The notes below the pieces were generated by a model that was given only the letters and a program-made list of their open reading frames with translations, searched no databases and had not been told where the DNA came from. This document shows, one piece after another, positions 5,564-58,615 of a stretch of 64,000 nucleotides of DNA. Position 1 is the stretch's first letter; every line of letters starts with the position of its first letter. The stretch is taken from contig JBAZTM010000008.1 in the NCBI GenBank assembly GCA_041661925.1, positions 1,128 through 65,127 of the forward strand, read 5' to 3'. The stretch comes from Gemmatimonadaceae bacterium (GTDB taxonomy: Bacteria; Gemmatimonadota; Gemmatimonadetes; Gemmatimonadales; Gemmatimonadaceae). The translations under genes and the position numbers were made by a program.

Positions 5564-8500
5564 CTACGGCGCCGGCGGGAGCTTGTCGGCAGGCACCTCG
5601 TACTCGCCCGTCAGCGTGTGCCGCAGCCCCGACGCCTGCTGCTCGGCGGTGATCTCCATCTCGCGCTGCTCGCTGACGAACCGGCGCTTGAACCACGTGC
5701 CGACGTCGTCGAGGTACGTGTAGGCGACGGGGATGACCACCAGCGTCAGCATCGTCGAGGTGATGAGGCCGCCGATCACCGCGTGGGCCATCGGCGCCCG
5801 GAACTCGCCGCCCTCGCCCAGCGCGAGTGCGATGGGGGTCATGCCGGCGATCATCGCAAGCGTCGTCATCATGATCGGACGCAATCGCACCGCCCCCGCC
5901 TCCACGAGCGCGGTGAAGCGGTGCGCGCCGGCGCGACGGCGTTCATTGGCGTTGTCCACCAGCAGAATGGCGTTCTTGGTGACCAGGCCCATGAGCATGA
6001 TCACGCCAATCATCGACATGATGTTCAGCGTCGAGCCCATGATGAGCAGGGCGAGCAGCACGCCCACGAGCGACAACGGAAGCGAAAGCATGATGGCGAT
6101 CGGCTGCGTGAACGACTCGAACTGCGACGCGAGAATGAGGAAGATCAGGATGACGGCGAGTGCCAGCGTCTCCCCAACGTAGCCGAGCGTCTCGACGAAC
6201 ATCTCGGTCTCGCCTCCGAGGGAGACAGAGTAGCCCGGCGGAAGCTGGAGCTTGGCCACCTCGGCCGTGATGGCGTTTGACGCCTCGGTCAACGTGATGT
6301 TTGGCGCGGTGCTTCCGGAGATGATGACGACACGCGCCAGGCGCGAGCGATCAATCTGCGCCGGCGCCGTGGCCACGGTCACCGTGGCGATGTCGCCCAG
6401 CCGTGCGTACGTCACGCCGTTGGGTCCGCCTTGCGCGGTGGGCACCGGCATTGCGCTGACGTCGGCGATGGAACGCCGCAGTTCGGGCGCCACCTGCACG
6501 CGGACGTCGCGCTCCTCGCCGGTCGGGTCCTCCCAGCGCGTCGCCACCTCACCCGCGAAGAGCGGGCGGATGGTCGCCGCAATGGCGCCAATGTCGAGGC
6601 CGAGCTGGTTGGCGGCGTCGCGGTTGACATCGACCCGCAGTTCCGGCTTGGGATCGCCGAGCGACGACTTGACGTCCACGACGCCGGGGATCTTCTCGAC
6701 GGCGGTGCGCAGCTCCGTGGAGAGGCGCTGCAACTCGGTGATGTCGGGGCCGCGCAGTTCGACCTGCAGCGGCGCCTGCGCGCCGCCGGGGCCCGACTGT
6801 GCGAGGACGAAGGATCGGACGCCGTAGAGCTGTCCGAGCCGCGCGCGGGCGTCCATCATCATGTCGTTGGCGCTGCGCGGGCGCTCGTGCGGCTTCACGA
6901 GGCGCACGTAGATCTCGCCGCTGCGCACCGTGCCCGTCGCCCCGGCGCCAATGGTGGTGTAGGTGTACGCCACGCCCTCCATGGCGCGCAGCGAGCCGAC
7001 GATCTGCTCGGCCTTGGACCGCGTCTGCGCGAGACTCGAACCCTCGGGCGTCTCGAAGGTCACCGTGAACTCGCTTTCGTCGGACTGCGGCGAGAACTCG
7101 CCGCCGATGAACGGCGTCAGCGCGAACGCTGCCACCAGGCTGAGCGTGGCGATGACGAGCGTCTGCCACCGGTGCAGGAGCGCCCACTCGATGACACCGC
7201 GGTAGCGATGCGCCACGCGGTCGAACCAGGCGTTGAACCGCGCGATGGTGCGGGTCACGACGTTGCCGCTGTGCGCGCCGTGCACGTGCGGGTCCACGCC
7301 CCACCAGGCGCTGAGCATCGGCGTGAGCGTGAACGACACGAAAAGCGAGACGAGCACCGCCCACGCGACGGTGAGGCCGAAGGCATAGAAGAAGCGGCCG
7401 ATGATGCCGCCCATGAACGCCACCGGCACGAAGACGGCGATGATGGAGAACGTGGTGGCCATGACCGCGAGGATGATCTCGCGCGTTCCCTGGCCGGCCG
7501 CCGTGAAGTGATCCTGCCCCATCTCGCGATGCCGCACGATGTTCTCGATGACCACGATCGCATCGTCGATCAGGATGCCGATCGAGAGCGAGAGCGCCAT
7601 CAGCGTCAGGATGTTCACCGTGAAGCCAAGCGCCTGCATGATGATGAACGCCGAGATGACCGAGACCGGCAGCGACAGCGACGTGATGGCGGTCGCCTTC
7701 CAGTCGTTCAGGAAGAGCATCACGATGATGACCGTCAGCAGCGCGCCGAGGAACAGCTCGTCGAGCATGTCGGCAACGGAGTTGCGGATGAGCACCGAGT
7801 TGTCGCGGACCACGCGCAGTTCGGTGCCCGCGGGCAGCTCCCCGCGCAGCCGCTCGATCTGTGCGTTGATGCCGTCGGCGACGTCCACCGTGTTGGCGCC
7901 GGAACTCTTGATCAGGTCGATGCCGATGGCGCGCCTGGCGTCCACGAGCGCCAGCGAGCGCTCCTCTTCGGTGCCGTCCTCGATGCGCGCCACGTCGCCA
8001 AGCCGGATCACCTGGCCGTTCCGTGTCGCGACGATGACGTCGGCGAACTGGCGCGTCTCCTTGATCCGTCCGCTCACGCGCACGAGCTGCTCGCGCGCGC
8101 CGAGCAGCACGCGGCCGGCCGGGACGTCGAGGTTCTGCGTCCGCAGCGCCATCGTGACCTGCGGCACCGTGATGCCCAGCGCCTCCATGCGCGCCGGCTG
8201 CAGGAAGACGCGCACCTCGCGCTTCAGCCCGCCGGAAATGCGCACCTCGCCCACGCCCCCCACCGACTCGAGGCGGCGGCGAATCGTCTCGTCCGCCAGC
8301 GCCGTGAGGCGCGCCATCGGGATGTCGGGGTTGGAGAGCGCCACCGAGATGATGGGCATCGCGCCGAAGTCGAACTTCTGCACGAGCGGCTGTTCCACGC
8401 CGTCGGGCAGCTCGCGCCGGATGGCGTCGATCTTGGAGCGCAGGTCCTGCGCCGCTGCATCCACATCGCGGCCGAGCTGGAACTCGACGATCACCTGCGA

Positions 8501-8812
8501 CACGCCCTCGAGGGAGACCGAGGTAATCTTCTTGACGTCCTGCACCGGATTGAACGCTTCCTCGAGACGACGCGACACTTCGCGCTCGACGGTACCGGCG
8601 CTCGCGCCAGGATAGATCGTTTGCACCGCGACGATCGGAAAGTCGATCTCCGGGAACTGGTCAATGGGCAGGCGCCGGTAGCTGAAGAAGCCCAGCACCA
8701 CCAGCGCGAGCATCACCATCGAGGTGAACACGGGGCGCCGGATGGCGAGGGCACTCAGGCCGCCGCCCGCCTGATCCGAGGTTCGACGGCCTCGGGCGCT
8801 TCGGGATTCCAT
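5564..8812 (-). CDS. RND efflux transporter, inner-membrane permease (AcrB/CzcA superfamily)
   Basis: 1082 aa with a 12-TM RND architecture and a typical N-terminus ([27 protein letters not shown]...[12 protein letters not shown]). It lies 1 nt downstream of the adaptor gene. Confidence 0.95.
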
Positions 8813-8813
8813 C

Positions 8814-9935
8814 CTACTTCTCCTTCGCCGTCGACACCTTCGTGCCGTCGGCTATCTCGACACCCGCCGTGACGACGATGCGCTCGCCCGCCTTGAGTCC
8901 GCTCACGATGACAATGGAGCCCGCGTCTTCGTCTCGCGCGCCGGTCGCCACCGCACGGCGGCGGACGACGTCGCCGTCCACCACGAGCACGAACGACTCC
9001 CTCTCGCCCGCGCGCACGGCGTTCATCGGCACGACCACCATCCTCGTCACCGCACCCGTGCGGATGCGGCCGTGCGCGAACTGACCGGCGACGATCTTGC
9101 CGCCGCCATTGGCCAGGCGGGTGAACACACCCACCTGCCGCGTGGTCGCGCTGGCCATGGGATCAACACGCGCCACCGTGCCCTTGAACTGCTGGCCCGG
9201 CATCCCGTCGATCGTGAAGGTCACGAGCTGACCAACGCGAACGTGGGCCGCATCCGCGGCGCCCACCTGACCCTTCAGCTCGAGCGTGCGCGGATCGACC
9301 ACGGTGAACACGGGATCATCCGACTTGACCGACTCGCCCTCTTCCGCCACCCGGTCGCTCACCCAGCCATCAATGGGCGATCGCATCGTCGTGTGCCCCG
9401 CCGCCTCGCTGGCACTCGCGAGCCCCGCGCGCGCCGCGGCAAGCTGCGCCACTGCCGCGTCAAAGCCGGCCTGCGCCGTCTTGAGGTCAATCACCGACAT
9501 GGCGCCGGCCTCGAACAGTTTCCTCGCGCCCTCGAGCCGCTGCAGCGCCACGGCTTGCGCCGCCTCGGCGCTGGAGACGTTCGCCCTGGCCCCCTCCGCC
9601 CCGGTGGTGACCCCCAGGGCTTCAATGCGCGCGAGCATCTGGCCACGGCTCACCTTCGCGCCGCGGTCCACCTTTACGTCACGCAGCGTGCCGGCGACCT
9701 GCGCGCGCACCCGCACAACGTCCGCGGGATCAAGCGCGCCGCTGACGACCACGCTCGGCCCGATGTCGGCGGTCGCCGCGGGCATGACGTCAGTCGCGGC
9801 GAGGGCGACGGGCGGGGCCGCGGTGTCGCCGGACTTAGCGCCGCCGCAGGCGGCTGACGCGGCGGCGATCCCGGCGAGGAAGGCGAAGCGCGCCGCACGC
9901 AGCGCGCGGGACGGGAATGAATGCATGGTGGGCAT
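8814..9935 (-). CDS. RND efflux periplasmic adaptor (MFP/HlyD-like) lipoprotein
   Basis: Lipobox (AAASAACGG), coiled-coil hairpin and beta-barrel segments. Positioned between the TolC and RND genes. Confidence 0.9.
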   Translation of the reverse strand: MPTMHSFPSRALRAARFAFLAGIAAASAACGGAKSGDTAAPPVALAATDVMPAATADIGPSVVVSGALDPADVVRVRAQVAGTLRDVKVDRGAKVSRGQMLARIEALGVTTGAEGARANVSSAEAAQAVALQRLEGARKLFEAGAMSVIDLKTAQAGFDAAVAQLAAARAGLASASEAAGHTTMRSPIDGWVSDRVAEEGESVKSDDPVFTVVDPRTLELKGQVGAADAAHVRVGQLVTFTIDGMPGQQFKGTVARVDPMASATTRQVGVFTRLANGGGKIVAGQFAHGRIRTGAVTRMVVVPMNAVRAGERESFVLVVDGDVVRRRAVATGARDEDAGSIVIVSGLKAGERIVVTAGVEIADGTKVSTAKEK

Positions 9936-17282: not shown

Positions 17283-17287
17283 CGGCG

Positions 17288-17353
17288 GGATGGAGGAGGG
17301 GTGCAGGGGTGTGGTGAGGGGGGAGGAGTGGAGAGCGGAGGAGGGGGAGGAGG
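17288..17353 (+). repeat. G-rich dispersed repeat, 'type 1' unit, solo copy
   Basis: GGAGGAGGGGTGCAGGGGTGTGGTGAGGGGGGAGGAGTGGAGAGCGGAGGAGGGGGAGGAGG. It aligns with 46801-46872 and with the reverse complement of 48550-48617. Confidence 0.8.
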
Positions 17354-17355
17354 TT

Positions 17356-21087: not shown

Positions 21088-21090
21088 GAC

Positions 21091-21135
21091 AGGGGTGGGG
21101 AAGGGTGCCGGGTGTGGTGCAGGGGAAGGGGCGGA
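21091..21135 (+). repeat. G-rich dispersed repeat (GGTGTGGTGCAGGGG family)
   Basis: GGGGTGGGGAAGGGTGCCGGGTGTGGTGCAGGGGAAGGGGCGG. It shares its core with 53611-53695 and 57806-57868. Confidence 0.65.
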
Positions 21136-31744: not shown

Positions 31745-33421
31745 ATGAGGCGCTTCGTCTACCTCTTCCAGGTTGAACAGGACCTGCCGGAGCATCTCGC
31801 GGAGGCCGAAGGTCCCGACAGCGAGGTGCGGTTCCTGTCGTATCGCGCGCGATCGGCCGACCGGCGAGCGCTGTACTATCCCTCGTCTTCGTGGACGCAG
31901 GGACGAAACCGCCTGCTCCGCGAGGTCGTAGACGGCGACTGGCTGTACTACGTGTTCGGCGATGCCGACGTCCACCTCGAAATCATCGGACGCAATGCGG
32001 AGCGCCAGAACCCATGGCGTGCGTTCGAGGAGTTTCTCCTCGCCCACGAGCCGGCTGTGGGAACGCCGGCGTACGCGTGGCACCTCTCGGGTCAGTGGGA
32101 TCTGACGCAGGAGACGCGAACGCTGCGTTTCTTCGACCCAGTGCTGAATGCGTTCCACCGAGAGGCGCTGCGCACGCTCCTGCCGTACTACGACCTCCTG
32201 GACGAGGAGTGCGCGGACTACTCGGGGAGCATCGTCTGCAGCCTCGCCGCCGACCTCTATGCGGGGCACGTGCTGCAGTCCAACCGCGTGCGGGTGTTGA
32301 ATCCGATCAGCCAGCGGGCGTACACGGAACGTCTGATGACGAAGCCCGAGACGCTCTACCTGGATGCAGTGCCGGATCCCAAGGACCGAGCATCGTACCG
32401 TCGGCAGCCGGAATGGAGCCAGTTGCCCCATCCTGACATGGGCGCGCCTTGTCGAAAGACGGCCTCGTACCGAAGGACGACCGAGGAACTTGCGCTGCGC
32501 TATCGGCTGGATCACCCGCTTTGGGTTCGCAAGTGCGAGTTACTGGCGATGCCGCTGGCGCACGAGTTCTACGGCGAAGGCCCGGCCAGCGCCCGTGCAC
32601 AACGGTGGCGAGCGCACGGCGCAGCAGCTGTGCCGGTGCGGGCGATGGGTGGCCTGCGGAAGCTCTGGCTGCGCACGCACGCGCTGCGAGTGCGCCTCGG
32701 ATTGGTCCGGACATCCGGACTGTTCCTGCTCGTTTACCGCATCCGGAACGTTCGGCACTCACTGCGCACCCGGCTGCAGCGTTGGCGGCGCCGGCTCCGT
32801 CGGCCGAACGAGCACGCGTTGTGGAACGCCTGGCGGACGGCCGGGCGCGCGCTCGCGGAACTCCCGGCCGGCGGTCCGGACGCCATCGATCTCATCGGTC
32901 ACGCGCTAGACCAACTGGACGATCCCGAGGTGATCTTCGTGGATGTGGGAACCGGTCGCGGCGAGGCACTCGGCCGCATTCAAGACGGCGTCTCGCAACG
33001 CAAGCGTGTGATCTCCATCGGCGTGGACCCCGTCCAGACGCGCGGCTTCACGTGGTACACGGGTTTCGTGCTGGGAACGGTAACGGATGGTGAGATGACG
33101 CTCGCGGCCATCCTCCGGCAGTACGGACTCGTCGGCCGGGTGCTGCATTGGGTGCGCATCAATCACGACGATCCCGTCACGGTCTGTCGTACACTCGGTC
33201 AGCAGTTGCAGCGCTGCCTGTTCCTCACGGTGCGATGCGCCGAAGGCGCGGCGGGTTCCGCCGCGGCCGCGGGCGCATCATGGCCGGAAGTCCGGGACAC
33301 GCTTGCGACCGATGGCTTCCGCGTGGTCGCTGTCATCGGTGGTGATTCCACGCAGCACGTGGAGGCCACGCTCATCAACGCTTCGCTCGCACAGACTCTT
33401 CTTCCCACCATCGCGTCATGA
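31745..33421 (+). CDS. Two-domain protein: uncharacterised N-terminal domain (paralogue of 38554..40443) plus a degenerate FkbM-like C-terminal domain
   Basis: The N-terminal ~210 aa align with the paralogue along their whole length (FxYLFQVEQDLP, YYPSSSWTQGRNRLL, FGDxDxxLE, NPWRxFExFLL, LRFFDxxLNAFHRE, LLPYYDLLDEE, CSLAADLYAGHV). The C-terminus has FVDVGTGRGE, but the KIDxxG block is lost (VRINHDD). Confidence 0.8.
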   Translation: MRRFVYLFQVEQDLPEHLAEAEGPDSEVRFLSYRARSADRRALYYPSSSWTQGRNRLLREVVDGDWLYYVFGDADVHLEIIGRNAERQNPWRAFEEFLLAHEPAVGTPAYAWHLSGQWDLTQETRTLRFFDPVLNAFHREALRTLLPYYDLLDEECADYSGSIVCSLAADLYAGHVLQSNRVRVLNPISQRAYTERLMTKPETLYLDAVPDPKDRASYRRQPEWSQLPHPDMGAPCRKTASYRRTTEELALRYRLDHPLWVRKCELLAMPLAHEFYGEGPASARAQRWRAHGAAAVPVRAMGGLRKLWLRTHALRVRLGLVRTSGLFLLVYRIRNVRHSLRTRLQRWRRRLRRPNEHALWNAWRTAGRALAELPAGGPDAIDLIGHALDQLDDPEVIFVDVGTGRGEALGRIQDGVSQRKRVISIGVDPVQTRGFTWYTGFVLGTVTDGEMTLAAILRQYGLVGRVLHWVRINHDDPVTVCRTLGQQLQRCLFLTVRCAEGAAGSAAAAGASWPEVRDTLATDGFRVVAVIGGDSTQHVEATLINASLAQTLLPTIAS

Positions 33422-36455: not shown

Positions 36456-36551
36456 CGGCGTGTGCCGCCCTCGAGGCGGCGTCCGGCGGCGTGCGGCGGC
36501 GTCCGGCGGCATCCGGTGGCGTGCGGACCCGCGCAGAATGCGGTCCCACGG

Positions 36552-38553: not shown

Positions 38554-40443
38554 ATGAAGCGATTCCTCTACTTGTTCCAAGTCGAGCAGGATCTTCCGTC
38601 CGCGTTGGAGGCGGCAGCCGGTCCGGACAGCGACATTCGCTTCTTGTCCTGGCGCGCACGATCGGCGGATTCCCGGAGCATCTACTATCCATCCAGTTCC
38701 TGGACGCAGGGCCGGAACCGCCTGCTGAAGGAGGCGCTGCGACGCGATTACCTGTACGTCGTGTTTGGCGACGACGACATCACGCTTGAGTTGACGGAGC
38801 GTGGCGTCACGGCGGCCGGCCCGCAGGCGAATCCGTGGCGCGTCTTCGAGGATTTCCTGCTGACCTACGAACCCGCCGTCGGCTGCAGCATGTATTCCTG
38901 GCACCTGAGCGGCGGCGCGTACGATCCGACCCAGGACTGTCAGACGCTCCGCTTCTTCGACGCGATCCTCAACGCGTTCCACCGCGAGTCGCTTGAAGTC
39001 TTGCTCCCCTACTACGACCTCCTGGACGAGGAGACGGAGTGCTACTCCCAGAGCCTGCTCTGCAGTCTCGCCGCGGATCTGTATGCGGGACATGTGATGC
39101 AGACGAATCGCCTCATCGCCGCCAACGACAAGCGTCGCCGGACCGACCTGGCCTTCGTCCTATGCAAGCCGGAGCAGCTCTACCTGGAGTCGCTGCGTGA
39201 TGCCGAGTGGGCGCGGCGTTTTGCGCGCCAGGGCGTGGGCGACAGTGCCCGCTTTCCAACGATGGGACCACCCCGGAGGAAAACCGCATCGTTTGCGCGA
39301 ACGGACGAGGAACTGGCGCGGCACTACGACCTTTCACACCTGCTCTGGACGCGCCGGCGGGCGCTCCGCGCGCTTCCGGTCACCGATGAGTTCTACTCCG
39401 ACAGCGCGGACTCACCGCGCGCATTCCAGTGGCGCGCCGCCAGGCCACGGCCGGCGGCTCTCCCGGCGCCAGCCATCCAGTCCCGGTTCGCGCTGCCGCA
39501 CCCTTGGCGGCTGCCGGCGTGGACTCGCTCCTATTTGCAGAAACCCGCCGTCCGTGCCCATCCGCTGTTTCTGATTGCTCGGGATCTTTACCGTGGCCGT
39601 GGGCGGCCTCGTGCCATCGCCGAGGTGCTTGGCAGGATGAAGTCCCGACTCCCCGCGCGAGGTCTCTGGCGAAGGTGGTACCGAACAGCTGGGGCCATTC
39701 ACGAGATTCCCGAGGCTCGCCAGCAAGAGGTCCTGGAGCTTCTTGCGTTCGCGCTGAACGAGCTAGCTGATCCGAGCGTGGTGTTCGTGGATGTTGGTGC
39801 GGGGCGCGGCGACGTGCTGCATGCGCTCCGTTGCACGGATCTGCACAAGCGCCTCTTCGCACTCGGCATTGATCCCATCGACCTGCGTGGGCAGCCGAGT
39901 TACACCGGCTACGTGCAGGCCGCCATCACCGACGGCCCCGAGGGTCACGCGGAACTGTTCCGTTACGCCTCGAGCGACTGCAGCTCGCTGAAGCGCATGG
40001 ATCCGACGAAGGTCACGCACGACCCCGCGCTGGGAGGGGACCGCCTCTACTACACACCCACTCCCATCGAGCGTCTGGAGGAAATGGTCCGGGTGCCGAC
40101 CTTCCACCTCTCCACGATCATCCGGCAGTACGGGCTCGCGAACGACGTGCTGCATTTCGTGAAGATCGACGCGCAGGGGAGTGACCTGGACGTCTTTCGC
40201 AGCCTGGGCGAGATGAGCTCGCGGTGTCTGTTCCTCCGCATGGAAACCGTGTGTCACGAAGGAGAAGGACCGGCGCCCACCCTGTACGAAGGGCAGACGA
40301 CGTTCGCGGAAGACCGCGCGGCGCTCGAGGCGGCCGGATTCCGGCTCTTCAACATCGCGCGATTCGGTTCGACGCCGGAAGCGGACGTGACGTTCGTGAA
40401 CGTGCGGCTGTTTCGGGAGCTTCTCCCAGCCCTCGCCCGCTAG
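38554..40443 (+). CDS. Two-domain protein: uncharacterised N-terminal domain (paralogue of 31745..33421) plus an intact FkbM-type methyltransferase domain
   Basis: The N-terminus is as in the paralogue. The C-terminus has VFVDVGAGRGD ... FVKIDAQGSDLDVFRSLG. The start is set at MKRFLYLFQ (ATG 38554). Confidence 0.8.
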   Translation: MKRFLYLFQVEQDLPSALEAAAGPDSDIRFLSWRARSADSRSIYYPSSSWTQGRNRLLKEALRRDYLYVVFGDDDITLELTERGVTAAGPQANPWRVFEDFLLTYEPAVGCSMYSWHLSGGAYDPTQDCQTLRFFDAILNAFHRESLEVLLPYYDLLDEETECYSQSLLCSLAADLYAGHVMQTNRLIAANDKRRRTDLAFVLCKPEQLYLESLRDAEWARRFARQGVGDSARFPTMGPPRRKTASFARTDEELARHYDLSHLLWTRRRALRALPVTDEFYSDSADSPRAFQWRAARPRPAALPAPAIQSRFALPHPWRLPAWTRSYLQKPAVRAHPLFLIARDLYRGRGRPRAIAEVLGRMKSRLPARGLWRRWYRTAGAIHEIPEARQQEVLELLAFALNELADPSVVFVDVGAGRGDVLHALRCTDLHKRLFALGIDPIDLRGQPSYTGYVQAAITDGPEGHAELFRYASSDCSSLKRMDPTKVTHDPALGGDRLYYTPTPIERLEEMVRVPTFHLSTIIRQYGLANDVLHFVKIDAQGSDLDVFRSLGEMSSRCLFLRMETVCHEGEGPAPTLYEGQTTFAEDRAALEAAGFRLFNIARFGSTPEADVTFVNVRLFRELLPALAR

Positions 40444-45964: not shown

Positions 45965-46785
45965 CAACGGAAGCCGTCCTCGTAGAGTTCCGCGAGCTTG
46001 CGGAGGGTGGTCGTGAAGTCGCCGGTGCGGTCGGCCACTGCCAGGGCGCCAATCATGTCGGCCGACATGTGCGGTGCGCCCGAAAACGTCTCCTGCAACG
46101 TCCCCGCGGCCAGCCTGTGCTCGTCCATCGCGTTCACGAACGCCGACAGCTGCGGGTCCGCGGCGGCCTCGGCGGCCAGCCGGATGGCGCGCGGCAGGGG
46201 CAGGCCCGCCTCGACGCCCGTGGCGAGAGCGCGCGCGAATCGGGCGCGCACCATCGGCGGCTTGGCACCGTAGCGCTGGGCCACCGCCACGAGGAACGAG
46301 CCGCCCGACGTGACCCACGCGATGCATCCGGTGGCGACGAAGGCGATGTAGGCGCCGGTCTGCCCGAAATAGAGCAGGGGGAACGGCGCGATGAAGACCA
46401 TGCAGATCGCCGTGAACATGGGATACGCCATTTGCTTCTTGATCCAGAGGATCAGCCGGTGCTTGGCGTGATAGAAGTCGGCGAGCAGCTGCAGCGACTC
46501 CTCGAAGGTACCGGTCTCTTCGCCGAGGACGAGGATCGCGCGCTCCATCGGCTCGAAGCGCTTGCCGCCCGTGCGCACGAGATACGTGACCCGCTGGCCG
46601 CGGCGCGCCCCGTCGAGGAGCCACTCGCGCATCTCCTCGACGTGCGGTGCGTGGCGCGCGCCGATGGTCTTGAGCGCCTTCTCGTTGGTGAACCCGGCAT
46701 GCACCGCCGTGCGCCACATGCGATAGAACTCGGCACGGTGACGGCCGTCGTCGAGGGCGCGATAAGCGGAGAGAAAACTCGGCAC
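45964..46785 (-). CDS. GspF/PilC-like (T2SSF domain) membrane protein, compact and orphan
   Basis: Two T2SSF-type helical bundles (FEPMERAILVLGEETGTFEESLQLLADFY and MSADMIGALAVADRTGDFTTTLRKLAELYE) flank TM helices. The start is uncertain (GTG 46785). Confidence 0.65.
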   Translation of the reverse strand: MPSFLSAYRALDDGRHRAEFYRMWRTAVHAGFTNEKALKTIGARHAPHVEEMREWLLDGARRGQRVTYLVRTGGKRFEPMERAILVLGEETGTFEESLQLLADFYHAKHRLILWIKKQMAYPMFTAICMVFIAPFPLLYFGQTGAYIAFVATGCIAWVTSGGSFLVAVAQRYGAKPPMVRARFARALATGVEAGLPLPRAIRLAAEAAADPQLSAFVNAMDEHRLAAGTLQETFSGAPHMSADMIGALAVADRTGDFTTTLRKLAELYEDGFR

Positions 46786-46800
46786 GGACGGAAGATATAG

Positions 46801-46970
46801 CGGAGGGAGGGGGAGGGGTGCAGGGGTTTGGGAGGGGTGAAGAGTGGAGTGCGGGGAGAGGAGGGAGGAGGCGGGCGGCCTTAGTGGCCGGTACATTCCC
46901 CCTCGTCCCCCGAACCTCCTCTCTCCACTCGACACTCCTTCCAAGCCGCTGCACTCCTCCTCGTCCTTCG
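46801..46970. repeat. Composite inverted repeat: type-1 unit (46801-46872, G-rich) facing an inverted type-2 unit (46898-46970, C-rich)
   Basis: The left arm aligns with 17288-17353. The reverse complement of the right arm aligns with 48476-48545 (core GAGGAGTRCAGCGGCTTRG...GAGTGGAGAGA...GGGGGA.GAGG). A central mini-hairpin is GGCC-TTAGT-GGCC. Confidence 0.8.
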
Positions 46971-46976
46971 CGCATC

Positions 46977-48473
46977 ATGCCCTCTGATTCAAATTTCGAC
47001 GAACTCGAACTCCTCATCCGCGCCAAGTACGCGCTGATCGTCCTCGACACCGTCGAGGTCGAACGCGCGGAGCAGGGGCTCGCGCTCTCGTCGTCGCGCC
47101 TCAACCTGCTGTACTTCTCGTGGAGCCGGTCCCGCGGACTGCGGCGCGGGGTGCTGAGTTCCGACCCGGTGATGTCCAACACGGAGGAGCCGGCCAAGGC
47201 GCTGGCGGCCGTGGTTGAGGAGGGCGCCGGTCTCTTTCACTTTCGCGGCCTTGGCGCGCACCTCGATGACCCGGCCGTCGTGAGCTACGTGCTGGATGTG
47301 GTGCAACAGTTCAATACGCGACGCGGCGCGCTGGTACTCACGGGCCACAACATCCGGCTCCCCGACGCACTGCGGCCGCACGCCACGGTCATCCGGCTCG
47401 CCGGCGCCTCGTTCGACGACTACCGCCTGCTGCTCGAGCGCCTCATTCGCGAGTACTCGGCCAAGATGCCGGTGAAGGTGGAACTGACGCACGAGGACCG
47501 CATGCGCCTCGTAAACAACCTCACCGGATTGTCGGTCACCGAGGCAGAGAAGATCATCACGCGCCTGATTGTCGAGGATGGCGCGCTGCGCGCGCCCGAC
47601 ATCGAGCGTGTGAACTCCGCCAAGCGGCAGATCGTGGAGCAGGACGGCCTGCTCGAGTTCTATCCGCACACCGAGGGGATGGACCAGGTGGCGGGGCTCG
47701 GCGGCCTCAAGAGTTGGCTCACGCGCCGGCGCGCGGTGGTGACCGACCCGCGCCGCGCCGAGGAGTTCGGGCTGGGCTTCCCCAAGGGCGTGCTCCTGCT
47801 CGGCGTGCCGGGGTGCGGCAAGAGCCTCTGCGCCAAATCGGTGGCGCACGAGTGGGGGCTGCCGCTGCTCAAGCTCGATCCGTCGAACCTCTACGACAAG
47901 TACGTGGGCGAGAGCGAACACAACTTCAAGCGTGCCATGATGACGGCAGAGCGTCTCGCGCCCATCGTGCTCTGGATCGACGAACTCGAGAAAGCCTTCG
48001 CGTCGGCGAGCGCCGACGCCGACGGCGGCGTGTCGCACCGCATCTTTGGCACGTTCCTCAGCTGGCTGCAGGATCGCCGCGGTGACGTCTTTGTGGTCGC
48101 GACGTCCAACGACGTGGCCAAACTGCCGCCCGAGTTCATTCGCAAGGGCCGTTTCGACGAGATCTTCTTCGTGGACCTTCCCGGCGACGCGGCGCGAGCG
48201 GAGATCCTGCGCATCCACCTGCGCAAGCGGAAGCAGGATCCCGCGACGCTGGACCTCGATGACCTCGTGACCGCAACGAAGGGCTTCAGCGGCGCCGAGA
48301 TCGAGGAGAGCATCGTGAGCGCGATGTACGCAGCGTTCGCCAACAGCACGCCGCTCGACACGGACGCACTGCTTACCGAGATCTCGGCGACGCGTCCGTT
48401 GTCAAAGACGATGCCAGAGCGTCTGGATGCGCTGAGGCGGTGGGCGTCGCATCGGACGGTCGCGGCGGACTAA
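46977..48473 (+). CDS. AAA+ ATPase (degenerate N-terminal domain plus an active classical-clade AAA module)
   Basis: Walker A GVPGCGKS, Walker B IVLWIDELEKA, ATSN (sensor 1) and the second region of homology. The start is set at MPSDSNFDELELLI. Confidence 0.9.
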   Translation: MPSDSNFDELELLIRAKYALIVLDTVEVERAEQGLALSSSRLNLLYFSWSRSRGLRRGVLSSDPVMSNTEEPAKALAAVVEEGAGLFHFRGLGAHLDDPAVVSYVLDVVQQFNTRRGALVLTGHNIRLPDALRPHATVIRLAGASFDDYRLLLERLIREYSAKMPVKVELTHEDRMRLVNNLTGLSVTEAEKIITRLIVEDGALRAPDIERVNSAKRQIVEQDGLLEFYPHTEGMDQVAGLGGLKSWLTRRRAVVTDPRRAEEFGLGFPKGVLLLGVPGCGKSLCAKSVAHEWGLPLLKLDPSNLYDKYVGESEHNFKRAMMTAERLAPIVLWIDELEKAFASASADADGGVSHRIFGTFLSWLQDRRGDVFVVATSNDVAKLPPEFIRKGRFDEIFFVDLPGDAARAEILRIHLRKRKQDPATLDLDDLVTATKGFSGAEIEESIVSAMYAAFANSTPLDTDALLTEISATRPLSKTMPERLDALRRWASHRTVAAD

Positions 48474-48475
48474 AC

Positions 48476-48617
48476 AGGAGGGGGAGGAGTACAGCGGCTT
48501 AGTAGGAGGGAGGAGTGGAGAGAAGAGTGAGGGGGAGGAGGCGCTCGATGGCCTCCTCCCCCTCTCTCCGCGCTCCACTCCTCCCTCCTTCTACACCCCT
48601 GCACTCCTCCTCACACC
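48476..48617. repeat. Composite inverted repeat (type-2 unit facing an inverted type-1 unit) forming a long hairpin; a bidirectional terminator between convergent genes
   Basis: There are two perfect stems: 12 bp (48531-48542 with 48551-48562) and 16 bp (48505-48520 with 48573-48588), separated by a 10-nt internal loop. Confidence 0.85.
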
Positions 48618-50291
48618 CTAGGCGAGGATCATCACCCAGATCCCAACTAGGCTCGCCAGCACAATCGAGTGCCAGAAGATCCGCCGCAGGATCAGCCCCT
48701 CGTGTCCGACAAAGCCTGTGGCGGCGCCAGCGACGACAATGCTCTGCGCATCAATCATCTTGCCCATCACGCCGCCGGCGCTGTTGGCTGCCGCCATCAG
48801 CACGGTGCTGACGCCCACCTGTGTGGCGGTGAGCACCTGCAGAGAACCGAACAGCACGTTGCTCGACGTGTCGCTTCCCGTGAGCGCGACGCCGAGCCAG
48901 CCGAGCATCGTGCCGAAATACGGATAGGCGCGGCCGGTCTGTGCGAAGGCGAGGCCGAGGATGGCGTCGAGGCCGGAGTAGCGCATGACGAAGCCGATGC
49001 CGAACATTGCCGCGATGGTGAGGAGCGGGATGCGCGCGCGGTTCAGCGCGTCGACGTAGGCTCCCATGATGCTCCGGCGTCCGGCGCGCATCGCGAGGCC
49101 GGCGACGAGGCCGGCGAGGAGAATGGCCGTGCCGGTGGCTGACAGCCAGTTGAGCGTGAAAATCGCCGCCTCGGGTTTGGCGACGGCGACCACTGGCGGC
49201 GTGCGTTCGACGAGGTTGTGCAGTCCGGGCACCTGGAAGGTGGGTGCCGAGAGCGCGTTGAGGCCGTTCTTCACCGCCGGCACGCCCCACGCAAAGACGA
49301 AGACGGCGAGGATGAGCCAGGGGAGCCACGCCTTCATCACGTCGATCACCGGCGCCGTTCTCGTCTGGTGAGGCTCGGCGGCAAACGTTGCCGCGGTCGC
49401 CGCCTCAGCATGGGCCTCGAGGTCCTTCGGCTGCCACACCTTCAGGAAGAGGCCCAGCGCCGCCATCGAACAGATCGCCGCGACGATATCCACCAGCCAC
49501 GGTCCGTGGTAGGTCGCCATCAGATACTGCGGCACCGCAAAGGAGCCGCCGGCGACGAGCAGCGCCGGCCAGACGGCGAAGGTGCGCCGGATACCGCAGT
49601 GGGCGGCGACGAGCCAGAACGGCACGATCACGCTGAACGGCGGAAGCAGGCGGCCGACCATGGCCGACAGTTCGTGCACGTCGAGCCCCGTGACGCCGCT
49701 GAGGGCGATGATGGGCGTGCCGAGCGCGCCGAAGGCGACCGGCGCGGTGTTGGCGAGGAGTGAGAGTACGGCGCTCTCGAGCGGCGCGAAGCCGAGTCCC
49801 ACGAGCAGCGCGGACGTGATGGCGACCGGCGTGCCGAACCCGGCCGCTCCCTCGAAAAAGGCGCCGAGCGAGAAGGCGACGAGCACGAGCTGCATGCGCC
49901 GGTCGGCGGTCACATCGGCGATGTGCTCACGCAGCGCGTCGAAGGCGCCGTGATCGACCGCGAGGCGATACAGGAAGAGGACGTTGACGAGGATCCAGCC
50001 GATCGGGAATAGACCGTACGCGGCCCCGAGGCCGGCGGCGGCCGCAGCAGATGCCGCCGGCATACCCGATGCGGCGATGGCGATGACCAGGGCGGAGCCG
50101 AGCCCGAGCAGAGCGGCCCAGTGTGCCTTCACCTTGTGCGAAGCGAGCGCCCCGAGGAGCAGTACCACGGGCAGCGCGGCGACCAGCGTCGAGAGCAGCG
50201 CGCTGCCGAGCGGATTGTAGGGTTGCGGCCAGGTCACCGTGGGGAGGGTTGGAGAAGGCCCAACGATGGCGACCGAGGGAAGGTCCTGCAA
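48618..50291 (-). CDS. L-lactate permease (LctP family)
   Basis: 557 aa. The N-terminus (WPQPYNPLGSALLSTLVAALPVV) is typical of LctP/LldP, and the protein is polytopic. Confidence 0.9.
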   Translation of the reverse strand: MQDLPSVAIVGPSPTLPTVTWPQPYNPLGSALLSTLVAALPVVLLLGALASHKVKAHWAALLGLGSALVIAIAASGMPAASAAAAAGLGAAYGLFPIGWILVNVLFLYRLAVDHGAFDALREHIADVTADRRMQLVLVAFSLGAFFEGAAGFGTPVAITSALLVGLGFAPLESAVLSLLANTAPVAFGALGTPIIALSGVTGLDVHELSAMVGRLLPPFSVIVPFWLVAAHCGIRRTFAVWPALLVAGGSFAVPQYLMATYHGPWLVDIVAAICSMAALGLFLKVWQPKDLEAHAEAATAATFAAEPHQTRTAPVIDVMKAWLPWLILAVFVFAWGVPAVKNGLNALSAPTFQVPGLHNLVERTPPVVAVAKPEAAIFTLNWLSATGTAILLAGLVAGLAMRAGRRSIMGAYVDALNRARIPLLTIAAMFGIGFVMRYSGLDAILGLAFAQTGRAYPYFGTMLGWLGVALTGSDTSSNVLFGSLQVLTATQVGVSTVLMAAANSAGGVMGKMIDAQSIVVAGAATGFVGHEGLILRRIFWHSIVLASLVGIWVMILA

Positions 50292-50838: not shown

Positions 50839-50964
50839 GGAGTTTCTTGCCAGAGTACGACGGAATCCGACGGAGTACCACAGAATGCGGCAGCGGCCCG
50901 GGAGCGAGAACTCGCCCTCGGGCCGCTGTGATTGCACTGCCTCACTCCGTCGTATTCTGTCGCA
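50821..50964. repeat. Nested inverted repeats and terminator hairpins between convergent genes
   Basis: An 11-bp perfect hairpin (GGCAAGAAACT/AGTTTCTTGCC, 50821-50851) spans the stop codon. A 9-bp hairpin (CAGCGGCCC/GGGCCGCTG, 50891-50928) follows. Both are flanked by inverted CGACGGA-type arms (50856-50877 and 50943-50964). Confidence 0.7.
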
Positions 50965-50971
50965 CTCTGTC

Positions 50972-53586: not shown

Positions 53587-53610
53587 GCCCTGAAGCTAGC
53601 CGGAAGACGG

Positions 53611-53695
53611 AAAGGGTACAGAGTGTGGTGCCGGGGCATGGTACACGGTGAGGTGCACGGGACAGGGAACAGGGTGTGGTGCGGCGGAGGGAAAA
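53611..53695 (+). repeat. G-rich dispersed repeat (two GGGWACAGRGTGYGGTG units)
   Basis: GGGTACAGAGTGTGGTGCC...GGGAACAGGGTGTGGTGCGGCGGAGGG. The same units occur at 57806-57868. Confidence 0.7.
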
Positions 53696-53724
53696 ACAGA
53701 ACGGCGGAGCATCTCTGCTCCGCC
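53689..53724 (-). terminator. Rho-independent terminator of the TonB-dependent receptor gene
   Basis: On the minus strand, GGCGGAGCA-GAGA-TGCTCCGCC is followed by GTTCTGTTTTT. Confidence 0.75.
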
Positions 53725-53738
53725 GCCCAGTTGTACGT

Positions 53739-53782
53739 CTGTTGTCTCTCTGTTGTTTCTCTGTTGTCTCTCTGTTGTTTCT
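53739..53782. repeat. Tandem repeat, 2 x 22 nt (or 4 x 11 nt alternating)
   Basis: CTGTTGTCTCTCTGTTGTTTCT occurs twice, immediately 3' of the receptor stop codon. Confidence 0.85.
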
Positions 53783-53783
53783 C

Positions 53784-57802: not shown

Positions 57803-57805
57803 TCG

Positions 57806-57868
57806 CGGTGCGGGGGAGGGGAACAGGGTGTGGTGCAGGGGGAGGGTACAGGGTGCGGTGAAGGGAAA
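57806..57868 (+). repeat. G-rich dispersed repeat filling the queE-queD spacer
   Basis: GGGGAACAGGGTGTGGTGCAGGGGGAGGGTACAGGGTGCGGTGAAGGG. Confidence 0.7.
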
Positions 57869-57876
57869 GAGGAGGA

Positions 57877-58518: not shown

Positions 58519-58520
58519 TC

Positions 58521-58604
58521 GAGACGGGAGACGGGAGACGGGAGACGGGAGACGGGAGACTGGAGACGGGAGACTGGAGACGGGAGCTGCGAAGCGGGAG
58601 ACGA
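58521..58604. repeat. Heptanucleotide tandem repeat (GAGACGG)n: 9 good and 3 degenerate copies
   Basis: Counted directly: GAGACGG x5, GAGACTG, GAGACGG, GAGACTG, GAGACGG, GAGCTGC, GAAGCGG, GAGACGA. The array fills the queC-queE spacer and ends 2 nt from the queE start. Confidence 0.95.
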
Positions 58605-58615
58605 CTGACCAGCGC

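Follow-up and report, generated by a model that had tools for sequence, protein, structure and literature searches.

Two long palindromic elements flank the gene for an AAA ATPase in a 64-kb stretch of DNA from a Gemmatimonadaceae bacterium (GenBank assembly GCA_041661925.1, contig JBAZTM010000008.1, positions 1,128 to 65,127; 67.5% G+C; hereafter the window, meaning the whole stretch at its full length). These elements probably belong to a dispersed family of intergenic palindromic repeats in an uncultured Gemmatimonadaceae clade, for which any role as a terminator or as the surroundings of a promoter is incidental. As part of the same reading, the ATPase gene is probably a resident chromosomal gene that carries an incidental copy on either side. 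The elements had drawn attention in a sequence-only reading of the window, which offered, as one of several possible roles, a cassette formed by the gene and its flanks. It was found that a mobile or invertible ATPase segment is most likely not what the elements mark, and that the copies of the family within one genome are rewritten together while their positions stay fixed.

Two hairpins built from one repeat unit

The elements that the sequence-only reading had noted upstream and downstream of the ATPase gene exist, with boundaries that were refined to those in Table 1. The downstream hairpin that it had drawn was confirmed by folding: the spacer forms one long imperfect hairpin of −109.6 kcal/mol (z −8.2), a stability that no sequence among 200 shuffles reached. 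The upstream spacer also folds into a single long imperfect hairpin (−133.8 kcal/mol, z −10.2; 0 of 200 shuffles fold as well), in which 46799-46877 pairs with 46898-46972. Both hairpins have a G/purine-rich arm on the 5′ side and a C/pyrimidine-rich arm on the 3′ side; the downstream arms are 85% complementary over 60 nt, and the G-arms hold at least four runs of three or more G. No Rfam family matched the elements at its gathering score. The sub-threshold matches were microRNA-precursor models, which fit any long hairpin, and these were discarded.

When they are all oriented with the G-rich strand forward, the four arms align collinearly over about 70 nt, that is, as copies of a single unit. 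Their identity is 63–77% in a four-arm multiple alignment and 68–78% in pairwise alignments, and the local-alignment z scores range from 8.3 to 14 against 1000 shuffles for all six pairs. Searched with an nhmmer profile of the arms, the 64 kb yield five copies and no more, with E values of 1e-8 to 1e-13: the four arms themselves and a single G-arm at 17283-17355. The arms are homologous, and their similarity stands above the low-complexity background. The fifth copy fills the spacer between an acyl-CoA dehydrogenase (ACAD) gene and an APH-kinase-like gene, both on the minus strand; this single arm folds at just −0.04 kcal/mol per nt.

Two features of the first description did not survive the alignment. 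It had distinguished two types of unit, but the pairings on which these types were founded (76% and 75% identity) fit no better than the remaining ones (75%, 78%, 72% and 68%). It had also placed the units in a mirror arrangement, with terminal and inner inverted repeats; the two elements are in fact direct repeats of each other (D1 75%, D2 81%), and they look inverted or mirrored because each element is itself a palindrome. The identity of roughly 80% that had been estimated by eye holds for ungapped sub-segments, whereas the full arms reach 63–78%.

A dispersed family in related populations

For comparison, ten contigs were used whose ATPase is 82–97% identical in protein to that of the window (L001-L006 and L087-L091), and these represent eight distinct arrangements. 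Metagenomes were scanned with the pattern GTGCRGGGGTKTGGN{8,14}GAGTGGAG, which gave 73 matches in 66 stretches where about four would be expected by chance; most of these stretches came from six Joint Genome Institute (JGI) samples, including the sample that gave L001. A profile of the family then identified 83 elements (41 doublets and 42 single arms) in 62 loci over 408 kb. This corresponds to about one additional copy per 19 kb, a density similar to that of the three loci in the window. Nearly all copies lie between genes, where they often take up the whole spacer; just two of the 83 elements seem to overlap a called gene, and an identical 33-nt core recurs at dozens of loci within one sample.

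The doublets have a strict polarity. The C-arm lies 3′ of the G-arm in 36 matches and 5′ of it in none. Of 28 doublets, 19 lie between tandem genes, five between convergent genes and four between divergent genes. Single arms, which make up about half of the copies and cannot form a hairpin, have no favoured direction with respect to transcription (9 versus 8). The literature searches yielded no account of such a palindromic repeat family in Gemmatimonadota, and elements were absent from ten inspected relatives of the ATPase (many phyla, at most 64% identity) among the matches listed in genome contigs.

Two regularities were tried and rejected. In the window, five half-sites fit a rule by which the C-rich strand would always be the sense strand upstream of start codons; the larger sample gave nine antisense and eight sense cases. 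The idea that doublets are two back-to-back leaders in divergent spacers was abandoned with 19 of the 28 doublets lying between tandem genes.

Individual copies show further peculiarities. One doublet (L154:3060-3200) has a loop with four tandem copies of GACGAGGC(G/C)TCCGCTT, and therefore the loops of these elements can expand through tandem duplication. Inside these elements, several metagenome contigs run out or decay into stretches of G or C such as GGGGGGGGGGGGGGGCGGGG (the 3′ end of L002, and L092, L125 and L129 in C-arm regions). Short-read assemblies are probably broken or corrupted by the repeats.

Concerted evolution of the arms

The arms group by genome and not by locus, and the similarity within a genome equals or exceeds the similarity between orthologous copies. 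Within genomes the arms are 74–85% identical in L001 and 62–79% identical in L087/L088, whereas orthologous arms are 60–68% identical to those of the window in four of five comparisons with L087/L088. Each genome has its own arm type at all three loci. Among the three closest genomes (the window, L088 and L001), the fourfold-degenerate sites of the ATPase gene are only 68–72% identical.

The same pattern was found at a GT2 glycosyltransferase locus and an RNase HII locus, where two populations with 87–89% coding identity differ in master type, each population having its own in both arms. Among 18 compact doublets that were aligned, the two arms also change together: pair 11-149 is AU in nine doublets and CG in nine, pair 19-141 is AU in nine and GC in nine, and neither pair is broken in any of them. 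Copies that have switched to the prevailing type of their genome were seen at the ATPase, APH/ACAD, GT2 and RNase HII loci. The same pattern is reported for REPINs, position-conserved repeats that change to match the predominant RAYT of the genome (bioRxiv 10.1101/2024.10.14.618302).

Candidate promoter and terminator signals at the ATPase locus

Two TANNNT boxes stand out in the divergent spacer upstream of the ATPase gene, one in the loop of the hairpin and one beside the start of the neighbouring T2SSF-like gene (Table 1). The loop sequence GTACATTC is invariant in six of six aligned orthologous spacers while the arms vary, and the corresponding box reads TACATT, TATGTT or TACCTT in L090, L005 and L091. 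On the T2SSF side, a TANNNT box (TATCTT, TATTTT, TATAAT or TAGTTT) is present at the same position in all relatives, in a spacer that otherwise diverges. Since such islands are kept while the arms change, and since similar conserved islands recur in other spacers of the relatives' genomes, both boxes are putative −10 elements. The spacing of the T2SSF-side box would give a leaderless or near-leaderless mRNA.

On this basis, the ATPase mRNA would start near 46905, inside the upstream element, and would take in no more of that element than the C-rich arm. This arm would form a 5′ untranslated region (UTR) of about 70 nt that is unstructured and has no Shine-Dalgarno (SD) motif. The C-arm thus probably makes up most of the ATPase 5′ UTR, and the G-arm would lie between the two divergent promoters. 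The remark in the sequence-only reading that the ATPase gene has no obvious SD is correct; no SD-like motif precedes the ATG.

Downstream, the convergent spacer between the ATPase and lactate-permease genes (144 nt) is filled by the element from stop codon to stop codon. A GC-rich stem-loop directly follows the ATPase stop codon, and there is no U-tract or T-run on the ATPase strand. For both the ATPase and the lactate-permease transcripts, the downstream doublet would most probably be a terminator that lacks a U-tract, or else a block to 3′-exonucleases. Strong transcriptional insulation had been suggested for the elements in general; this is plausible for the downstream hairpin, which fills its convergent spacer.

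Nature of the family and its closest parallels

In its behaviour the family resembles REPINs or miniature inverted-repeat transposable elements (MITEs). The basic unit is the G/purine-rich sequence of about 70 nt, which occurs alone or as a doublet made of a G-arm, a short loop and a complementary C-arm. With its 140–170 nt, a doublet can adopt a very stable hairpin or a cruciform. The family is probably kept up genome-wide through a homogenising or replicating process, in which, by analogy, a RAYT-like enzyme or gene conversion could act; such a process would therefore yield a population-specific master sequence with both arms changing together. We infer that the elements spread in this way.

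Several observations weigh against this reading. A crude HUH...Y(x)NP regular expression found no transposase or RAYT gene in the window and about 0.5 Mb of Gemmatimonadaceae loci, a small fraction of a genome, and none of the related loci has arms that flank a transposase gene. The palindrome ends lie 12–16 nt outside the core motif, and the flanks of 31 doublets, inspected by eye and with fuzzy ends that could hide short duplications, show no consistent direct repeat or target-site duplication. Rfam holds no matching family. The promoter and terminator roles are derived from conservation and position only: a strict sigma-70 scan found no promoter, and for the downstream hairpin the sole terminator-like match concerns the minus strand and has a weak T-rich tail. 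Copies are also slightly clustered, with 14 of 21 neighbour gaps below 1.5 kb against 10.4 expected (P about 0.05, a value inflated by orthologous duplicates and short loci), and the pairing of copies around single genes may not be purely a matter of chance. Finally, one lineage (L089/L158) has its ATPase gene moved along with parts of both elements, as described in the next section.

It is rather unlikely that the elements are instead structures selected by the host (terminators, insulators or cruciform promoter elements) that are kept alike genome-wide by co-evolution with a trans-acting host factor, for instance a DNA- or RNA-binding protein, or through G-quadruplex or i-motif biology, and that insulate the ATPase gene. 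The elements fill their spacers exactly, reaching from one stop codon to the next or from a promoter box up to the ATG; this would suit such a function, as would the G-runs of the G-arms. Two convergent spacers of the window, 1986-2208 and 50839-50971, also hold long hairpins, which are made from different short repeats. In L005, an 84%-identical relative, G-rich and C-rich arms of a different sequence surround the same −10-like box, and therefore the architecture of the site is older than the current family type. However, orthologous spacers may have or lack an element while the order of the genes stays the same. The spacer that holds the copy at 17283-17355 measures just 7–38 nt in L004, L005, L090 and L091, and L005 has a downstream spacer of 13 nt without an element, next to only short arms upstream. 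Half of the copies are single arms, for which a hairpin is impossible and a preferred orientation to transcription is lacking, and no candidate for the trans-acting factor is known.

A further possibility is that the family represents an undescribed class of strand-asymmetric palindromic replicators, in which the homopurine G-arm is always 5′, and which is rewritten in concert throughout the genome by an enzyme other than a classical RAYT, captures promoters (through the −10 box in the loop) and terminators, and, through the fragility of its palindromes, occasionally seeds the relocation of a bracketed gene as in L089/L158. We regard this as doubtful.

With the family seen as dispersed repeats, its closest parallels can be compared. 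Like REPINs, it consists of intergenic hairpin doublets of two inverted units together with singlets (both window elements and the 41 doublets in related loci are of this build), with a fixed orientation within the doublet. Nearly all copies are extragenic, they follow a genome-specific master sequence and switch type at orthologous sites, and the measured density extrapolates to dispersed copies that number tens to hundreds in each genome. Classical REPs are palindromes of 20–35 nt with a conserved 5′ GTAG. In contrast, the arms of the present family are about 70 nt long, almost purely purine-rich and without self-complementarity; GTAG occurs in some arm types but is not conserved, and it is absent from the G-type master sequence. 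The REPIN/RAYT system includes a single-copy RAYT gene (an HUH Y1 transposase) with the repeats on its flanks; no RAYT gene was found within the reach of the crude search given above, and the REPIN/RAYT literature that was found makes no mention of Gemmatimonadota.

The MITE-like ERIC/IRU, YPAL and Correia-type families are likewise imperfect palindromes of 125–170 nt that lie in transcribed intergenic regions near stop codons and promoters. Members of these families can act as terminators, as RNase III targets or as carriers of promoters. They have defined terminal inverted repeats, and Correia elements also a TA target duplication; no target duplication was seen here. MITEs, which are non-autonomous derivatives of an insertion sequence, likewise have terminal inverted repeats between target-site duplications, and in this the present doublets differ from them as far as their flanks could be judged by eye. 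To our knowledge, a strong asymmetry of a G-arm and a C-arm with an exclusive 5′-G-arm polarity (36 to 0 in the present family) is not a property of those families. The downstream element also resembles the "I-shaped" terminators of high-GC bacteria, which lack a U-tract, in that a GC-rich hairpin fills a convergent spacer and no T-run is present on the ATPase strand. However, its stem of about 60 bp is far longer, and the repeat is also dispersed to places where no termination is expected, for example divergent spacers.

The ATPase locus in relatives

The double flanking of the ATPase gene had been presented as special. Given three occupied spacers among 35–49, the probability that copies are adjacent by chance is P = 0.12–0.17, and contigs of relatives also have two copies on either side of the genes for RNase HII, a GT2 glycosyltransferase, an S8 peptidase and an MBL-fold hydrolase, and of a small open reading frame (ORF) for a four-helix bundle. 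At about one copy per 19 kb, and with unrelated genes bracketed in the same way, the arrangement largely agrees with chance-level density; the bracket around the ATPase gene is an ordinary outcome for a repeat family. An apparent recurrent link between the four-helix-bundle ORF and the elements (L096, L107 and L142) was rejected, as these are a single orthologous locus beside accC.

The sequence-only reading had further suggested that the ATPase gene is mobilised or inverted by recombination between the repeats. On such an account, the doublets would be the ends of a unit that moves or flips the gene, as in composite transposons flanked by MITEs. The relatives do not support it. The order MFS, T2SSF-like (−), ATPase (+) and lactate permease (−), and with it the orientation of the ATPase gene, is kept in all seven arrangements with readable neighbours, and no inverted, empty or excised ATPase segment was found among these seven. 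Both hairpins are present in L001, L088, L004 and L090 with very different arm sequences, and neither is present in L091; the gene order at the locus is the same with and without the elements, including in relatives that lack the downstream one. The longest exact run common to both elements is 14 nt in direct and 12 nt in inverted orientation, and runs of 14 nt or less are too short for efficient RecA-dependent recombination. The genes that are bracketed elsewhere are housekeeping genes at orthologous loci.

The observation that speaks for a cassette comes from L089 (GCA_025361705.1). Its ATPase is 91% identical and lies outside the usual synteny, downstream of a NiFe-hydrogenase cluster, where it adjoins a truncated stomatin-like gene (6137-6430, minus strand) and fragments of an IS91-like transposase (8331-9062, minus strand). 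The segment retains the upstream spacer and, of the downstream hairpin, the G-arm only. An exact 22-nt direct repeat, GGAATAGGAATTTCAATCGGGG, stands on each side of it, at 6468-6489 and 8305-8326. Both junctions were confirmed by L158, an independent Logan assembly from three samples. However, the breakpoints miss the outer ends of the elements: one lies about 20 nt inside the T2SSF-like coding sequence and the other at the apex of the hairpin. Transposition by the repeats therefore accounts for L089/L158 less well than a rearrangement, perhaps through the fragility of the palindrome or through an IS91-type capture. A simple insertion that duplicated its target was considered and rejected, as excision of the insert restores no intact stomatin-like ORF. 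With this lineage and the slight excess of pairs around single genes in its favour, the cassette keeps a small probability and is on the whole improbable.

In L091, the region of the ATPase stop codon is tandemly triplicated (TAGGCGTCGCCGAC x3, L091:11549-11619) at the place where the downstream hairpin would be.

A structured leader and chance likeness

A third role that had been suggested for the upstream element is that of a structured leader. In this case the whole upstream hairpin would be transcribed, and an alternative pairing of GGAGG and CCUCC would control translation of the ATPase or attenuate transcription. The very stable fold is in agreement with this, and so is the position of the C-arm, which ends 4–6 nt before an ATG without an SD. 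The conserved −10-like box in the hairpin loop argues otherwise, as the mRNA therefore probably starts inside the element. Moreover, doublets also lie 3′ of genes and between cistrons at many unrelated genes, the arm sequences are wholly replaced between close relatives, and Rfam gave no match. A structured leader is thus very improbable.

Hardly any weight can be given to a chance likeness of low-complexity G-rich spacers produced by replication slippage without a common origin: many spacers of the lineage do consist of short units in tandem, for example (GGGAGAC)n, 25-nt GGGTGTGGTGCAGGGG units and (CTCTGTTGT)n, but the collinear alignments of about 70 nt reach z scores of 8–14 against shuffles and nhmmer E values down to 1e-13, and identical 33-nt cores recur at dozens of loci.

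Genes of the locus

The ATPase ORF was borne out as it had been called (Table 1). By homology, the protein places the window among uncultured Gemmatimonadaceae. Residues ~235-460 form a Cdc48/PAN-like AAA domain, with a PDB match to the Cdc48/p97 D2 domain (6e-59), and no family match was found for the N-terminal ~230 amino acids. Homologues number thousands and occur across phyla. The left neighbour, the T2SSF-like gene, lies on the minus strand with a GTG start at 46785, at the equivalent position of which L005 has an ATG; the divergent spacer that separates it from the ATPase gene measures 191 nt.

Table 1. Features of the ATPase locus and copies of the repeat unit in the window.
Feature	Position	Strand	Remarks
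AAA ATPase gene	46977-48473	+	498 aa; Pfam PF00004, 5e-29
Lactate-permease gene (right neighbour)	48618-50237	−	PF02652 match; stop codon 48618-48620; convergent with the ATPase gene
TATCTT box, candidate −10 element	46792-46797	−	6 nt upstream of the T2SSF-like GTG start (46785)
Upstream element	46799-46972		ends 4–6 nt before the ATPase ATG
Upstream G/purine-rich arm	46799-46877	+	one copy of the ~70-nt unit; nhmmer E = 2.6e-9; family profile match
GTACATTC	46891-46898	+	upstream hairpin loop; candidate ATPase −10 box (TACATT), ~80 nt before the ATG
Upstream C/pyrimidine-rich arm	46898-46972	+	unit in reverse complement; minus-strand nhmmer match, E = 1.4e-13
Downstream element	48474-48620		begins directly after the ATPase TAA and runs into the lactate-permease stop codon
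Downstream G-rich arm	48474-48545	+	nhmmer E = 1.1e-11
Downstream C-rich arm	48548-48620	+	nhmmer E = 4.3e-12; ends at the lactate-permease stop codon
Fifth unit copy, single G-arm	17283-17355	+	nhmmer E = 4.2e-8; 72–83% identical to the four ATPase-flanking arms

Other repeat-filled spacers

Repeats of other kinds fill further spacers of the window and its relatives. The spacer 58519-58615, upstream of a radical-SAM (QueE-like) gene, is a tandem heptamer array, (GGGAGAC)n; the same position is occupied by a different repeat, (GACGGTA)n, in L005:21257-21329 and L091:21372-21442. The spacer between a TonB-dependent receptor gene and a GDPD gene (53587-53783) combines G-rich GGGTGTGGTGCAGGGG-type units with a 25-nt period, a short GC hairpin (GGCGGAGC...GCTCCGCC) and a pyrimidine-rich (CTCTCTGTTGT)n tract. 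This architecture is kept with different unit sequences in L001:16578-16785 and L090:16542-16742.

In the convergent spacers 50839-50971 and 1986-2208, the long hairpins have a GC-rich core and arms that are complementary arrays of short tandem repeats. In the window the units resemble GACGGAGTA or CACGGAG; they are AGAGACAACAG in L001:13838-13962, GGTAGAC in L005:13632-13795 and ACAGAGTGAA in L091:13778-13906, so that the repeat unit at one orthologous convergent spacer differs in every genome. Another convergent spacer, 36456-36551, consists of tandem GGCGGCGTCCGGCGGCGTGC-like repeats. A related G-rich family with units of about 25 nt (GGGTGCAGGGTGTGGTGCAGGGGAA) is found in the spacers 57803-57876 and 21088-21130 and in L001:20791-20864; in L004, both hairpins that flank the ATPase gene are built of this GGGTGCAGGGTGTGGTGCAGGGGAA-type unit and not of the GGAGG-rich one.

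The window also contains two paralogous segments, 31874-33154 and 38683-40161, which lie 6.8 kb apart in the same orientation and are 70–84% identical in nucleotides over several blocks. Their repeat blocks are the families D4, D6, D7, D10, D11, D15 and D18.

Significance

For the ATPase locus, these results remove a tempting but wrong reading, as evidence that the cassette is mobile or phase-variable is lacking. For this clade of the Gemmatimonadaceae, they point to an abundant intergenic family of palindromic repeats that evolves in concert. In genome annotation, such repeats could be mistaken for regulatory RNAs or for the ends of mobile elements, and assemblies may break at them. The interest of the family lies in its concerted evolution and in the unusual asymmetry of its arms, and not in the ATPase locus itself. 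Beside REPINs, it would be a second and phylogenetically distant case of repeats that are fixed in position yet rewritten in sequence, and the identification of the enzyme behind this concerted rewriting would be of general interest.

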